NCBI GenBank assembly: GCA_963727315.1
Contig: CAVSFE010000002.1
Span: 279,723 to 343,722 of the forward strand
Length of the DNA stretch: 64,000 nt
Origin: an uncultured Chloroflexia bacterium
GTDB lineage: Bacteria > Chloroflexota > Dehalococcoidia > Dehalococcoidales > RBG-16-60-22
Direction: 5' to 3'
Shown piece by piece: positions 51,008-57,792 of the stretch. The position numbers and the translations under genes are program-made. The stretch's first letter is position 1; each line of letters starts with the position of its first letter. Under the pieces are notes generated by a model that was not told where the DNA came from, ran no database searches, and saw only the letters and a list, made by a program, of their open reading frames with translations.

Positions 51008-51254
51008 GCGAAACATGGTTGAGCCTCGTCGCGCACTGTTCACCCTTTCATTCCTTGCGGAGTCGCGGCGACCCATGCTTCGCAAAAAAATAGCCAGCTT
51101 ACCATAAATCGAAAAACGAATACCGATTTCTGAAGCTAACTTAACATATAACGAAAAACGAATATTCACGAACAAATCGTACGTAAAAAATAAAAAAATA
51201 TTTTAAAAACGAATAACGAATCCTCTATGACACGCCACACAGATATGCTATAAT
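51008..51254 (+). repeat. Promoter-proximal module, copy A (inverted partner at 57542..57792)
   Basis: The order is a 76-nt GC-rich stem-loop (51008..51083), then an AT-rich region with CGAAAAACGAATA at 51110 and 51152 and CGAATAACGAATC at 51210, an A/T tract, and the argS promoter. Manual alignment with the reverse complement of 57542..57792 matches at most positions. Confidence 0.8.
51227..51254 (+). promoter_or_regulatory. Sigma-70-type promoter with extended -10 (ATGACA-N16-TGcTATAAT) for argS
   Basis: ATGACA at 51227..51232, TG at 51246..51247 and TATAAT at 51249..51254, 40 nt upstream of the argS ATG. Confidence 0.55.
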
Positions 51255-51294
51255 TTCTTCGTAATCTTTTCTAAAATCAGGACTATCGACTCTA

Positions 51295-52954
51295 ATGCTC
51301 AAGCAGACCATTACTGAACTATTAACGCAGGCGATTGCCAAAGCGCAGCAGGAGGGCAAGCTCCCCGCCATTTCCCTCCCGGAAATCGTCATCGAGCGGC
51401 CGCAGAAACCGGAGCACGGCGACTACGCCTCCAGCATCTCTCTAAAGCTGGCGCGGGCGGCGGGGACCAACCCCCTGAATATTGCTAAACAGATAGCCAG
51501 CTACATCCGGCCCTCCGCGGAGATTGAAAGCGTCACGGTGGCTCCCCCGGGCTTTATCAACTTCACCCTGAAGAACGGCTGGCTCGCCGGGCAGGTGGAC
51601 GAGATATCCGCCGCCGGCAGCACTTATGGCGATATCAGCCTCGGGCAAAACAAACCAATACAAATCGAGTTCGTCAGTATCAACCCCACCGGCCCGCTGC
51701 ACGTCGGCCACGGGCGCGGCGCCGTCCTCGGCAGCACCCTCTGCAATATCATGACCGCCGCGGGCTATAAAGTCGTTAAGGAGTACTACTTCAACGACGC
51801 CGGCAGCCAGATGGACGCCTTCCGCAACTCGCTGTGGGCTCGCTACCAGCAGCAGCTCGGCCGGAACGCCGAGATGCCCGCCGACGGCTATAACGGCGCC
51901 TACATGGTCGACCTCGCCGCCGAAATCATCAGCGAGAAAGGCGACCGTTTTCTCAACCTGCCGGAGGCCGAGGGCATTGAAGAGCTATGCAGGCTCGGGC
52001 TGACGAAGATTCTCGCCGGCACCCGCGCCGACCTCAAACGGCTGCGCGTCGAGTTCGACGTGTGGTACAGCGAAAAGACCCTCTACGAGAACGGCCAGTT
52101 CGATAAGGCGATGAAGCTCCTCAAGCAGGGCGGGTATCTCGCCGAACGCGAGGGCGCCACCTGGTTCGTGGCCACCTCACTCGGGGAGGACAAGGACAAC
52201 GTGGTCGTCCGCAGCAACGGCTCGCCGACCTATTTCGGCGCCGATATCGCTTACCATTATAATAAGTTCATCGAGCGCAAGTTCGACCGCGTCATCAACA
52301 TCTGGGGCGCCGACCACCAGGGGCATGTCTCCCGCATGAAAGCGGTCGTCGATGCCCTTGGCATCGACCCGGCCCGACTTCAAATAATCGTCCATCAGAT
52401 GGTCACGCTGCGGCGGGACGGGGAGGTCGTTAAGATTTCCAAGCGCAGCGGGGACATCGTCACCCTCAGGGAGCTCATCGACGAGGTCGGCGTGGACGCC
52501 TGCCGCTTCTTTTTCCTGGCCCGCACCGCCGATAGCCAGATGGACTTCGACCTCGAGCTGGCGAAAAAGCAGTCGGTGGACAATCCCGTCTACTACGTCC
52601 AGTACGCCCACGCCCGTATCGCCAGCATCCTGCGCCTGGCGGAAGACCGAGGTATTAAAGACATCGCCGGCGATGTTTCGCTCCTGACCGACGCGTCCGA
52701 GCTTACCCTGATACGCAAAATGCTGCTCCTGCCCGAGATAGTGGAGACCATCGCCCAGACGCTTGAGCCGCACCACCTCACCTACTACGCGCAGGACCTG
52801 GCGACCGCCTTCCATGCCTTCTATAAAAACTGCCGCGTCGTCACCGGCGATACAGCCATGACGGGGGCCCGGCTCAAGTCTGGTGAGGGCCGCCAAGCTC
52901 GTCCTGGGGAGGACTTTGAACCTCATGGGCATGAACGCCCCGGAGAAAATGTAG
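51295..52954 (+). pseudogene. argS: Arginine--tRNA ligase, C-terminal frameshift as assembled
   Basis: The N-terminal domain and catalytic core are present ([27 protein letters not shown], anticodon-binding region). After ...TGARLK the listed frame runs into trpS. The next frame reads [24 protein letters not shown] and stops at 52952..52954, a typical ArgRS end. One extra nt lies near 52879, and the repaired protein is ~552 aa. Confidence 0.9.
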
Positions 52955-52971
52955 TCGCAGAAAGGTTCGGT

Positions 52972-53957
52972 ATGAAAAAACGCGTCTTTTCGGGCATCCA
53001 GCCGACCGGCGAGATCCACATCGGCCGGTATGTGGGCGCCATCAGGCACTGGGTGGCCATGCAGGACAATTACGATAGTATTTTCTGCGTCGTGGACCTG
53101 CACGCCATTACCGTACCGCAGGACCCCGAATTGCTTAAAGGGCGAATCCGCGAGGTCGCCGGCCTGCTTATGGCCGCCGGCATCGACCCGGAACGCTCTA
53201 TACTGTTCGTGCAGTCGCACGTCTGCGCCCACAGCGAGCTGGCCTGGATTCTCAACGGTTTTATCCCGATGGGGTGGATGCAGCGCATGACCCAGTATAA
53301 AGAGAAGTCCGCCAAGCTCAAAGGGCAGGTCAGCGTGGGGCTTTTCGATTACCCTTCGCTGATGGCGGCGGATATCCTGCTCTACAGAACGGACGTGGTG
53401 CCGGTGGGTGAGGACCAGAAACAGCACGTTGAGCTGGCCAGGGACGCCGCCCAGCGCTTCAACAACGTCTACGGCGAGACCTTCGTGCTGCCGGAGCCGC
53501 TCATCCCGGACGTCGGGGCGCGCATCATGGGGCTGGACGACCCCACCAAGAAAATGAGCAGGTAGCGAAGAAGGCCCCGAACCACGCTATCGCCCTGCTC
53601 GATACACCGGATATTATACGCTCCAAGATAATGCGGGCGACCACCGACTCGCTGAAAGAAATCCGCTTCGATGAAAGCCGACCGGGCATCAACAACCTGC
53701 TGACCATTTATCATGCCTTCACCGGCGAGAGTAAAAAAGAGATAGAAGCAAAGTTCGAAGGCAAAGGCTACGGCGACCTCAAGAAAGCCCTGGCCGAAGT
53801 AATCATCGAGGGGTTGCGCCCGTTGCAGGAACGCTATAAAGCCCTGACCGCCGAGACTGGCCATATCGACGCCATACTAAAAGAAGGGGCGGCTAAAGCC
53901 CATCCCATGGCTGAGAAAATGCTCGCCGAGGTAAAAAAGAGGGTTGGATTAGGATAG
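52972..53957 (+). pseudogene. trpS: Tryptophan--tRNA ligase, frameshift inside the KMSK motif as assembled
   Basis: [24 protein letters not shown] (HIGH-type)...[13 protein letters not shown]...DDPTKKMS is followed by a stop at 53563..53565. The next frame continues (K)[30 protein letters not shown]... to 53957. One missing nt near 53560 restores KMSK, and the repaired protein is ~328 aa. Confidence 0.9.
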
Positions 53958-53980
53958 CTTTTAGTTCTTCTTTTCCCCAA

Positions 53981-56999: not shown

Positions 57000-57010
57000 A
57001 TCGCACCTGT

Positions 57011-57496
57011 TTATAGAATTACCGGCTGCCGCTTGACCCCTTCCCCACCCTCTAAAATCTCCCCATCATCCTTATAGCGCTTCAGGACAAAATGCGTCAC
57101 CGTCCCCTGCACGCCCTCGAGGTGGGCCAGGTTCTGCGAGACAAAGTCCGCCACTTTGCGCTCCGTCTTGCCGACGACCACCAGGAGCAGGTCGTAGGTG
57201 CCGGAGGCGAGAAAGAGGGAACGCACCTGTTCATATTGCGCGATGCGCCCAGCGATGGAGTCGAAGCCGACCTCCGGCTCCGGCTTGACCTTGACCTCGA
57301 TAAGTGCCCAGACCGGCTCGTCGTTCTCGACCCGGTCCCAGTTGACCACCGTCTTGTACTTCAGGATAATCCGGTCTTTCTCCGCCTGCCCGATGGCACT
57401 GGCGACCTCGGCGGTGGACAGGCCGGTCATGGTGGCTATCTGCCGGCCGGTGGTGCGGGCATCGTTTTCCAGAATCTTTAAAATGTCCTTCAGCAT
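57011..57496 (-). CDS. Lrp/AsnC family transcriptional regulator
   Basis: 161-aa ORF. It has an N-terminal wHTH (ILKILENDARTTGRQIATMTGLSTAEV) and a C-terminal RAM/AsnC_trans_reg domain. It is the first gene of the operon with the aminotransferase. Confidence 0.9.
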   Translation of the reverse strand: MLKDILKILENDARTTGRQIATMTGLSTAEVASAIGQAEKDRIILKYKTVVNWDRVENDEPVWALIEVKVKPEPEVGFDSIAGRIAQYEQVRSLFLASGTYDLLLVVVGKTERKVADFVSQNLAHLEGVQGTVTHFVLKRYKDDGEILEGGEGVKRQPVIL

Positions 57497-57541
57497 ACAC
57501 TCGCCTCCTCACCTTTTCCCCGGAGAAAAACAGATATCAAC

Positions 57542-57570
57542 AGGATAACATTTACAAGGGGTGAATTCAA
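57542..57570 (-). promoter_or_regulatory. Sigma-70-type promoter with extended -10 (TTGAAT-N17-TGtTATCCT on the minus strand) for the lrp-aminotransferase operon
   Basis: The reverse complement of 57565..57570 is TTGAAT. The 17-nt spacer ends in TGT, and the reverse complement of 57542..57547 is TATCCT. The site is 45 nt upstream of the ATG at 57496. The -35 sits at the same relative position in the module as in copy A. Confidence 0.5.
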
Positions 57571-57792
57571 GCCGATTCTTTATTCGTTTTTTAAATTTTT
57601 TTTTATTTTTTCCGAAGCTAATTAGCTTCAATTATTCGTTTTTCGTTTTATGTTAAACTAGCTTCAAAATCAAGTATTCGTTTTTCGATTTATGTTAAGC
57701 TAGCTATTTATTTGGCGAAACATGGGTCGCTTTGTGCTCCGCAAGGAATAAAAGGGTGAACGATGCTCGCACAAGGCTCAACCATGCTTCGC
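57542..57792 (-). repeat. Promoter-proximal module, copy B (inverted partner of 51008..51254)
   Basis: On the minus strand the order is a 78-nt stem-loop (57715..57792), CGAAAAACGAATA at 57675..57687 and 57633..57645 (42 bp apart), the palindrome GAAGCTAATTAGCTTC (57613..57628), an A/T tract, CGAATAAAGAATC (57574..57586), and the promoter. Confidence 0.8.

Follow-up and report, generated by a model that had tools for sequence, protein, structure and literature searches.

Two inverted repeats beside argS and lrp of a Dehalococcoidia bacterium: probable members of a composite, promoter-bearing interspersed repeat family

Composite repeats with variable internal tandem units, such as BOX, and repeats that create promoters, such as Correia elements, are established (PMC3049150). 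Here we describe a small composite repeat that occurs as an inverted pair in a 64,000-nucleotide stretch of DNA, hereafter the window, from an uncultured Chloroflexia bacterium (GTDB class Dehalococcoidia; assembly GCA_963727315.1, contig CAVSFE010000002.1, positions 279,723 to 343,722). One copy (A) precedes argS and the other (B) precedes the gene of an Lrp/AsnC regulator (lrp). A first-pass annotation had described them as two ~250-bp copies of one promoter region in front of two convergent operons, argS-trpS-MFS-dioxygenase and lrp-aminotransferase. Its observation was largely right and its interpretation mostly wrong: A and B are probably members of an undescribed family of composite small interspersed repeats of Dehalococcoidia, which bear a promoter-like module of their own and possibly add read-through transcription to the genes they face.

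The inverted pair and the adjoining promoters

The inverted repeat was confirmed by three computed comparisons. With blastn, positions 51008-51222 aligned with the reverse complement of 57574-57792 at 83.3% identity over 221 nt (E 1e-53), far beyond chance. A MAFFT alignment of A and B agreed with this picture, and a repeat search revealed collinear inverted arms between the same two stretches, 22-82 nt long and 87-91% complementary. The limits first given for the pair (51008..51254 against the reverse complement of 57542..57792) were wrong at both ends. On the gene side, the A/B similarity stops at 51222/57574 in the MAFFT alignment, 3-4 nt short of the -35 hexamers of argS and lrp, and the last ~32 nt of each claimed copy (51223-51254 and 57542-57573) show no mutual homology; these stretches are homologous to the promoters of relatives that lack the repeat. 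Outward, both copies continue for ~58 nt past the claimed limits, to about 50949 and about 57852, and this stretch contains a promoter-like module. The identity of A and B across the entire ~275 bp is 76.6%. Correctly recognized from the start were the module order (stem-loop, 13-mer block, A/T tract, extended -10) and the promoter-proximal position of both copies, in the same orientation relative to the following gene. The distance from the last 13-mer-like site to the -35 was also correct, at 4 nt before argS (ATGACA, 51227-51232) and 3 nt before lrp (TTGAAT, 57570-57565), and both -10 hexamers are of the extended TGn type. The parts of the two elements and the promoters beside them are as follows.

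50949..51222, + strand: element A, whole composite repeat of ~274 bp; outer limit from the GACAAAATCCCCTT motif and the family alignment, inner limit from the end of the A/B similarity and the restart of homology to the related contig L001 at 51244
50950..50990, + strand: promoter-like module of A, reading toward the stem-loop and argS: GACAAAATCCCCTT at 50950-50963, -35-like TTCTTT at 50962-50967, 17-nt spacer, -10 TATAAT at 50985-50990
51008..51083, + strand: stem-loop of A, 76 nt, with a nearly invariant 25-nt apical region GTTCACCCTTTCATTCCTTGCGGAG; fold energy -27.5 kcal/mol, z -2.4
51092..51164, + strand: two A-rich 42-nt tandem units of A (51092-51122 and 51134-51164), from the repeat search and motif scan
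51168..51222, + strand: tail of A, with a weak hairpin (51168-51180), an A/T tract (51184-51209) and the terminal 13-mer CGAATAACGAATC (51210-51222)
57574..57852, - strand: element B, whole composite repeat of ~279 bp; limits from the end of homology to repeat-free relatives at 57571-57573 and from the element-bearing ortholog L003, collinear up to 57852
57809..57849, - strand: promoter-like module of B, with the degenerate upstream motif GTCATCATTCTCTT, -35-like TTCCTT at 57832-57837, 17 nt, and -10 TATACT at 57809-57814
57715..57792, - strand: stem-loop of B, 78 nt; fold energy -33 kcal/mol, z -4.1
57574..57705, - strand: A-rich block of B, with units at 57675-57705 and 57633-57663; found by nhmmer at 57573-57706, E 2e-28
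57574..57629, - strand: tail of B, with the hairpin GAAGCTAATTAGCTTC (57614-57629), an A/T tract (57587-57611) and the terminal 13-mer CGAATAAAGAATC (57574-57586)
51227..51254, + strand: native argS promoter, outside the repeat: -35 ATGACA, 16 nt, TGcTATAAT (promoter scan)
57542..57570, - strand: native lrp promoter, outside the repeat: -35 TTGAAT, 17 nt, TGtTATCCT

Both elements thus run in the order promoter module, stem-loop, two A-rich units, small hairpin, A/T tract and terminal 13-mer, and the units of both have a 42-nt spacing, each with CGAAAAACGAATA at its end. The inner stem of B (CUUGUGC/GCACAAAG) is unlike that of A in sequence and retains the pairing. The hexamers of B's promoter-like module and their spacing are kept in the orthologous copies of L003 and L007, where the sequence of the spacer differs. 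A coding function of the stem-loop was ruled out, because an indel shifts the conserved apical sequence between reading frames in A and B on either strand. The motif AACGAAAAACGAATA occurs nine times in the window with at most three mismatches, against 1.2 expected; seven of the nine lie within A and B, and elsewhere in the window the 13-mer motif is at chance level.

Five related contigs (L001, L073, L074, L075 and L076) were obtained via homologues of the aminotransferase encoded next to lrp. None carries the repeat at the sites covered, nor in the flanking sequence, which was covered for as much as 10 kb in each direction. All five retain the lrp promoter (cTTGAATtcaccc...tgcTATTCT), standing before the aminotransferase gene in L076, and the argS promoter (tatgcTATAATtt; tatgcTATAAT) is kept in L001, L074 and L076, the relatives that reach argS. 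According to blastn, homology to the relatives ends on the lrp side at 57571-57573, three bases upstream of the -35, and picks up again at 58610, within gatA. Next to argS, the match to L001 begins at 51244, and on the side of the neighboring 23S rRNA gene L074 and L076 are homologous up to 50846-50851. Because the A/B similarity ends at 51222/57574, the -35/-10 regions of both genes fall outside the repeat. To judge from these alignments, argS and lrp have native promoters, beside which the repeat was added.

The relatives further show what stands at each site when the repeat is absent. Between the 23S promoter and argS, L074 and L076 hold an acetyltransferase gene and a META-domain gene; the window has neither and carries copy A (compared stretches: window 50852-51243, L074 15319-16838, L076 14343-15535). 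At the lrp site the element is present in L003, which is about 90% identical to the window at the nucleotide level, and in L007 (about 81%), and absent from L001 (about 85%) and from L073, L074 and L076 (80-82%). L003 is collinear with window positions 55939-57852 at 89.7% identity and has three units against the window's two, and in L007 a 260-nt insert with a second promoter module separates the stem-loop from the units. This patchy presence fits a hypervariable spacer with gains and losses. The gatA-lrp spacer (57853-58609) is indeed hypervariable, the relatives holding HEPN_AbiV, NucS-like, HIT or other hypothetical genes there, and it looks like a hot spot for accessory or defense genes.

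A and B are no more alike than copies from different contigs. Over the full element, identities are 77.9% for A and L005, 78.5% for B and L005, and 78.0% for B and its ortholog in L003, against 76.6% for A and B, which therefore show neither a recent duplication nor homogenization.

Copies of the family and their gene context

Copies in other genomes were retrieved with two scans. GTDB representative genomes were scanned for two exact GAAAAACGAAT words 29-33 nt apart, and many loci were found in six Dehalococcoidia species known from metagenome-assembled genomes (MAGs). JGI metagenome contigs were scanned for the apical sequence of the stem-loop, which gave nine hits, six of them true copies and three chance matches in coding sequence (L004, L006 and L008). 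An nhmmer profile built from the A-rich blocks was applied to the fetched loci and the window and recovered 39 copies of the block, a minimum for the family: 14 in MAG MFD04408.bin.1.159, 6, 5, 4, 2 and 1 in the five other MAG species, 5 in metagenome contigs and 2 in the window. The family is thus clade-restricted and can be dispersed over many sites of a genome, with no fewer than 14 loci in one MAG and 1-6 in each of five others. Hits of the two-word pattern in other phyla were not recovered by the profile, and the apical pattern had no match in the GTDB representative genomes, among which the source genome is not included. Phage and plasmid collections gave no match to the repeat; in viral contigs the 13-mer pair had only chance matches, in Haemophilus coding sequence, and the apical loop had none. 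A search of the whole window against Rfam 15 gave only the 23S rRNA at gathering score, with no match to element A at E<=10 and all matches to element B and its flank far below the gathering score. The literature yielded no full-text match for the 13-mer or for Dehalococcoidia repeat elements.

Alignment of 71 A-rich units gave the consensus gaagct.acTTAaCATAaAaCGAAAAACGAATA / gaagct.acTTAaCATAaAaCGAAAAACGAATAcc, with units spaced 42-44 nt apart. Inside it, a 24-nt core (TTAACATAwAaCGAAAAACGAATA) is nearly invariant across species, while the flanking spacers vary. The tail consensus from 32 copies is AAAAAACGAAtAACGAATc. Full elements are about 150-330 bp long and contain two to four tandem units, their A-rich block lying in a genome of ~58% GC; the 13-mer sites, counting internal units and the tail site, number 1-4 per element, with three in 25 of the 39. 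The variable segment between the promoter module and the units tends to be a hairpin, and in A, B, L002, L003 and L005 it is the stem-loop of 76-78 nt. Across eight copies of this stem-loop the 25-nt apical region is nearly invariant, and compensatory double changes were found in two of the 20 predicted pairs. A second hairpin, with varying arm sequences, follows the units in 14 of the 23 copies that could be tested. The co-varying inner stem of the first hairpin and the changing arms of the second indicate selection on structure. Modules also recur separately, the stem-loop without an A-rich block in L009 and L010 and the A-rich block alone in L039, L050, L065 and L068. A hairpin within each unit (AAAUCG/CGAUUU) was also considered; it was present in ~14 of 37 units, overall not above shuffled sequences, and was rejected as a general feature.

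The promoter-like module is a regular part of the family. With at most three mismatches, GACAAAATCCCCTT was found upstream of the A-rich block in 26 copies, and 24 of these 26 have TTnnnn, 17 nt and (T/C)AnnnT in fixed register, compared with 8.6% of shuffles. Of these 24, 23 have a spacer of precisely 17 nt. The whole module (GACAAAATCCCC, TTnnnn, 17 nt, TAnnnT) reads into the element. In several copies a downstream start codon or ribosome-binding site lies 0-37 nt past the tail. Such a gap leaves no room for another promoter, and the gene there must therefore be transcribed through the element.

In the subfamily with the stem-loop (window 57800-57825; L003, L005 and L007), an apparent small palindrome, with arm sequences that vary from copy to copy, encloses the element's own -10-like hexamer in its loop. 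If real, this palindrome would argue for a structure at the DNA level or for an RNA that starts further upstream.

All 39 copies are intergenic. The tail faces the start of a co-directional gene in 24 of 38 cases and a convergent gene end in the other 14, a bias that is not significant (p = 0.14). Co-directional neighbors include ArgS, AspS, RecA, isocitrate dehydrogenase (Icd), RtcB, DprA, HIT, YjbQ, an acyl-CoA dehydrogenase and a tRNA, among others, and phage neighbors include TerL and the major capsid protein. A functional theme among the downstream genes, such as aminoacyl-tRNA synthetases, was rejected, as the neighbors are unrelated. In the MAG MFD04408, blocks without the promoter module stand inside late operons that resemble those of prophages. 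One such block separates a scaffold-like from a major-capsid-like gene (L050, 3048-3191), and two separate small- from large-terminase-like genes (L039, 2342-2480; L065, 6002-6139). In the latter two, which belong to a 7.5-kb duplicate in the same MAG (95.7% identity), the terminase start codon directly abuts the tail and has no Shine-Dalgarno sequence. Outside prophages, L005 has a full element of the window's subfamily (695-1064, - strand) in front of a tRNA gene, with 5 nt between the end of the element and the TTGACT-17-TATTAT promoter of that gene. The distance from the tail to the -35 is thus 3-5 nt at three independent loci of the stem-loop subfamily, namely argS, lrp and the L005 tRNA gene.

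A different kind of repeat was observed next to element B. Nested GC-rich palindromes, CTCACCCCCTGACCCCCTCTC ... GAGGGGGATACAGGGGGTGAG, lie at 57879-58058 of the window, and a similar palindrome occurs 8-25 nt upstream of the GACAAAAT motif in at least 10 family members of other genomes. They are a second, separate repeat family that tends to accompany the composite repeat.

The genes around the pair are listed below; the protein-coding genes were assigned with Pfam, except for the one open reading frame (ORF) that has no Pfam family.

47633-50625, - strand: 23S rRNA gene (Rfam match)
50816..50844, - strand: native 23S rRNA promoter, divergent from argS (TTGACA, 17 nt, TATCCT)
51295-53957: ArgS and TrpS
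53981-55228: major facilitator superfamily (MFS) transporter
55316-55816: dioxygenase-like protein
55821-56999, - strand: class I/II aminotransferase
57011-57496, - strand: Lrp/AsnC regulator
58106-58567, - strand: ORF of 153 aa, AT-rich (about 45% GC)
58591-60042, - strand: amidase/GatA

Copy A consequently lies in a divergent intergenic region, between argS and a 23S rRNA gene that the first-pass annotation had missed. This rRNA gene stands alone, with no 16S, 5S or tRNA gene in the window; no 5S rRNA was detected in the 1.6 kb downstream of it, even at a permissive threshold. The proteins closest to the aminotransferase are from Dehalococcoidales MAGs. The order and direction of the genes (gatA, lrp and aminotransferase co-directional, argS-trpS convergent to them) is the same in the repeat-free L001, L074 and L076. 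The interval between trpS and the aminotransferase gene differs among the relatives, so that the operon content first listed is not conserved. In the window this interval (53981-55816) holds the MFS transporter and the dioxygenase-like protein, in L001 (11416-11877) a SnoaL-like protein and in L074 (11250-12226) two hypothetical proteins. An apparent ArgS-TrpS fusion of 756 aa is the product of two single-base frameshifts, one in argS (near 52879) and one in trpS (near 53560-53565). Apart from these, each gene has its full length, and the relatives' counterparts, which are separate proteins of 552 aa and 327 aa, share 84-87% identity with them. The frameshifts are probably indel errors of a long-read assembly, and homopolymer lengths in the window should therefore be read with care.

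Proposed action of the repeat and rival explanations

We propose that the element is, or in the past was, dispersed as a non-autonomous unit, although not as a classical cut-and-paste miniature inverted-repeat transposable element (MITE). The number of units would change through slippage or unequal recombination; slippage or unequal exchange has been proposed for boxB arrays (PMC3049150). The element's own promoter would fire toward the tail, giving a transcript that starts 2-3 nt before the stem-loop and crosses the A-rich units. Since the terminator scan found no terminator-like site on the element strand between the element promoter and argS or lrp, this transcript would run on into the gene, and the element would serve as a second upstream promoter with a long A-rich leader and a 5' hairpin. 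Beyond the 5' stem-loop and the short hairpin after the units, the predicted leaders are largely unstructured, with z-scores of -0.8 (A) and -2.2 (B). In addition, an effect like that of an UP element or of curved DNA could come from the A/T-rich tail, which lies at about -40 to -76 relative to the native promoters. Read in reverse, the short hairpin is followed by U-rich sequence and resembles a terminator, which may explain why the element is tolerated beside convergent gene ends. As far as the sequence can tell, copies A and B may contribute transcription into argS and lrp. We infer that such effects on expression are by-products of the repeat and not a dedicated argS/lrp regulon.

Several observations weigh against this explanation. 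Mobility of the repeat is only inferred. Terminal inverted repeats are absent: for 24 full elements, local alignment of the first 45 nt with the reverse-complemented final 45 nt gave a mean score of 6.9, and shuffled sequences gave 6.7. There are likewise no target-site duplications, the repeats in the flanks being mostly 2-3 nt long with the same distribution as in mismatched flanks, at element boundaries known to within about 3 nt only. Neither a transposase nor any other protein family is found repeatedly in the 3.5 kb around the copies, and recurrent loss from a hypervariable spacer, in place of insertion, could explain why the element is present in some relatives and absent from others at the lrp site. 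As to the promoter, A and B have weak -35-like hexamers (TTCTTT and TTCCTT, respectively), which a simple promoter scan missed, and the upstream motif of B is degenerate, with five mismatches. The near-invariance of the 24-nt core exceeds what is expected of a decaying selfish repeat and hints at a sequence-specific partner. Finally, the copy numbers are lower bounds, as the pattern demanded two exact 11-mers, and the counts cover the fetched loci.

Other classes of element were tried and rejected. The family is small, AT-rich, multi-copy and intergenic like a MITE, and it has no terminal inverted repeats or target duplications. Repetitive extragenic palindromic (REP) sequences and REPINs do not match the stem-loop, which is 76-78 nt long, has a nearly invariant apical region of 25 nt and occurs singly. 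Iterons of a replication origin or a centromere-like site, suggested by 43-bp tandem units beside an AT-rich tract, are ruled out by the many dispersed copies per genome. Ends of a Tn7- or Mu-type transposon were dismissed as well: the sites have one orientation per element, and the interval between A and B consists of core genes that repeat-free relatives also have.

Among rival explanations, a domesticated array of binding sites deserves most attention, although we consider it unlikely. A DNA-binding protein, either a regulator or a nucleoid-associated protein, would occupy phased CGAAWAACGAAT sites, and the family would have spread this input to promoters including those of argS and lrp. 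Such a role would account for the near-invariance of the unit core and the tail 13-mer across species beside variable spacers, for a site spacing of 42-44 bp, about four helical turns, for the last site 3-5 nt before the -35 at argS, lrp and the L005 tRNA gene, and for the 24 of 38 copies that face a co-directional gene start. It does not account for the 14 copies at convergent gene ends and the insignificant orientation bias, nor for the copies in phage late operons that directly abut start codons. Within the window the motif is confined to A and B, with other hits at chance level, the neighboring genes share no functional theme, and the relatives use the same promoters without the repeat.

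A related reading, to which we give the same low credence, combines the repeat with such a protein. The element would be a co-opted mobile cassette of promoter and leader, in which a protein acting on DNA or RNA recognizes the invariant CGAAWAACGAAT motifs, and a common input would be spread by the cassette itself. There is room for it because the 24-nt core and the 25-nt apical loop are nearly invariant and the 3-5-nt distance from tail to -35 recurs. If true, it would wire aminoacyl-tRNA synthetases, recA, icd, a tRNA and prophage late genes to one input across Dehalococcoidia, and a regulon would have evolved through the dispersal of a repeat in a bacterium whose genome is streamlined.

Somewhat less probable still is a stand-alone small RNA gene in each full element. 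The RNA would be transcribed from the element's promoter, begin with a hairpin and have an A-rich, multi-motif body to titrate an RNA-binding protein or to act as a leader or translation enhancer, and the position beside argS and lrp would be incidental. The conserved geometry of a promoter reading into the element agrees with this, as do the hairpins kept by compensatory changes, the A-rich and largely unstructured body with three or four repeated motifs, and the copies facing convergent genes, which cannot serve a downstream gene. Against it, no terminator follows the tail on the element strand, no Rfam match was found even at E<=10, the prophage-operon copies have no promoter, the fold energy of the whole leader of A is unexceptional (z -0.8) and the hairpin within the units is not general.

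The interpretation of the first-pass annotation, that a whole promoter region was duplicated in this genome and put argS-trpS and lrp-aminotransferase under common, probably Lrp-dependent control, is very improbable. It drew on the equal orientation of the copies to their downstream genes, on the matching distance between the last 13-mer and the -35, and on the adjacent Lrp/AsnC gene. The -35/-10 regions are outside the repeat and are conserved in L001, L073, L074/L075 and L076, none of which has it, and A and B are no closer to each other than to copies from other metagenomes. A shared regulatory input is not supported, the 13-mers being part of a dispersed family of at least 39 copies with unrelated neighbor genes, 14 of 38 of them at convergent ends. 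In essence, this is the common repeat with no strict preference for promoter positions that the first-pass annotation itself had named as a refutation of its reading. Typical binding sites of Lrp/AsnC proteins are AT-centered palindromes; the 13-mer is a tandem heptad (ACGAAAA/ACGAATA), and it is absent upstream of lrp in the five relatives. A flipping of the 6.3-kb segment by recombination between its two flanking ~275-bp inverted copies, also proposed at first, is scarcely credible, as only one orientation was seen, the same as in the repeat-free L001, L074 and L076, the longest perfect match between A and B is 21 bp without sequence homogenization, and Pfam revealed no recombinase gene or domain within the segment.

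Significance and comparison with known systems

For annotation, a promoter-bearing composite repeat means that the ~275-bp blocks are to be masked as a repeat family and not read as duplicated promoters or operators, and that argS and lrp have their true promoters in the short conserved segments adjoining these blocks. Dehalococcoidia genomes are small and streamlined, yet they hold an intergenic modular repeat with a built-in promoter beside essential genes and in prophages. If this promoter fires, the family would be a ready source of expression differences between close relatives. The variable unit number offers a handle for strain typing, and the near-invariance of the core (24 nt) and of the apical loop (25 nt) suggests that each has a binding partner.

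Among phage-borne systems, T4-type phages reportedly have promoter-stem-loop cassettes (PeSLs; Arbiol et al. 2010) that are repeated, intergenic and situated at boundaries of variable gene content. They are said to be much shorter and were reportedly proposed to drive gene shuffling by recombination. The present family shares with them the cassette of promoter and stem-loop, the intergenic position, the location where gene content varies and the presence in phage late regions. Unlike PeSLs, no two copies flanking a variable cassette were found.

Bacterial interspersed mosaic elements (BIMEs) of enterobacteria and Neisseria intergenic mosaic elements (NIMEs) are, like this family, intergenic mosaics of separately recurring modules, in which a palindromic unit is joined to other motifs; they have no classical transposon ends and often lie beside other GC-rich palindromes (PMC3049150). 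In contrast to the 20-40-nt REP of BIMEs, the palindromic module here measures 76-78 nt, and the A-rich units and the built-in promoter have no counterpart in BIMEs. Correia elements, which are MITEs of Neisseria, resemble the family as dispersed repeats upstream of genes that can supply promoters and become part of 5' leaders when co-transcribed (PMC3049150). They have 26-bp terminal inverted repeats and target duplications, both of which were tested for and not found here, and the promoter of this family, unlike theirs, is internal and conserved and is not formed at the insertion junction.

Pneumococcal BOX (boxA-(boxB)n-boxC), together with BIMEs and NIMEs, represents the known kind nearest to this family (PMC3049150), with which it also has the restriction to a clade in common. 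BOX and the present repeat are both small, AT-rich, intergenic, multi-copy and modular, with a variable number of internal tandem units of ~43-45 bp that differs between orthologous insertions. Neither is linked to the function of neighboring genes, about a third or more of the copies lie near convergent ends, and BOX can influence neighboring expression, as is predicted for this family. Unlike BOX, the family belongs to another phylum, with no sequence relationship claimed, has no terminal inverted repeats, its ends being non-complementary and forming no single long hairpin, and carries a conserved sigma70-like promoter with GACAAAATCCCC; its A-rich and largely unstructured body is a further difference from the known systems. 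It is accordingly an ordinary kind of element and a new family, not a MITE, REP or BOX in the strict sense, and it is not surprising in kind, as composite interspersed repeats are well known in other phyla.

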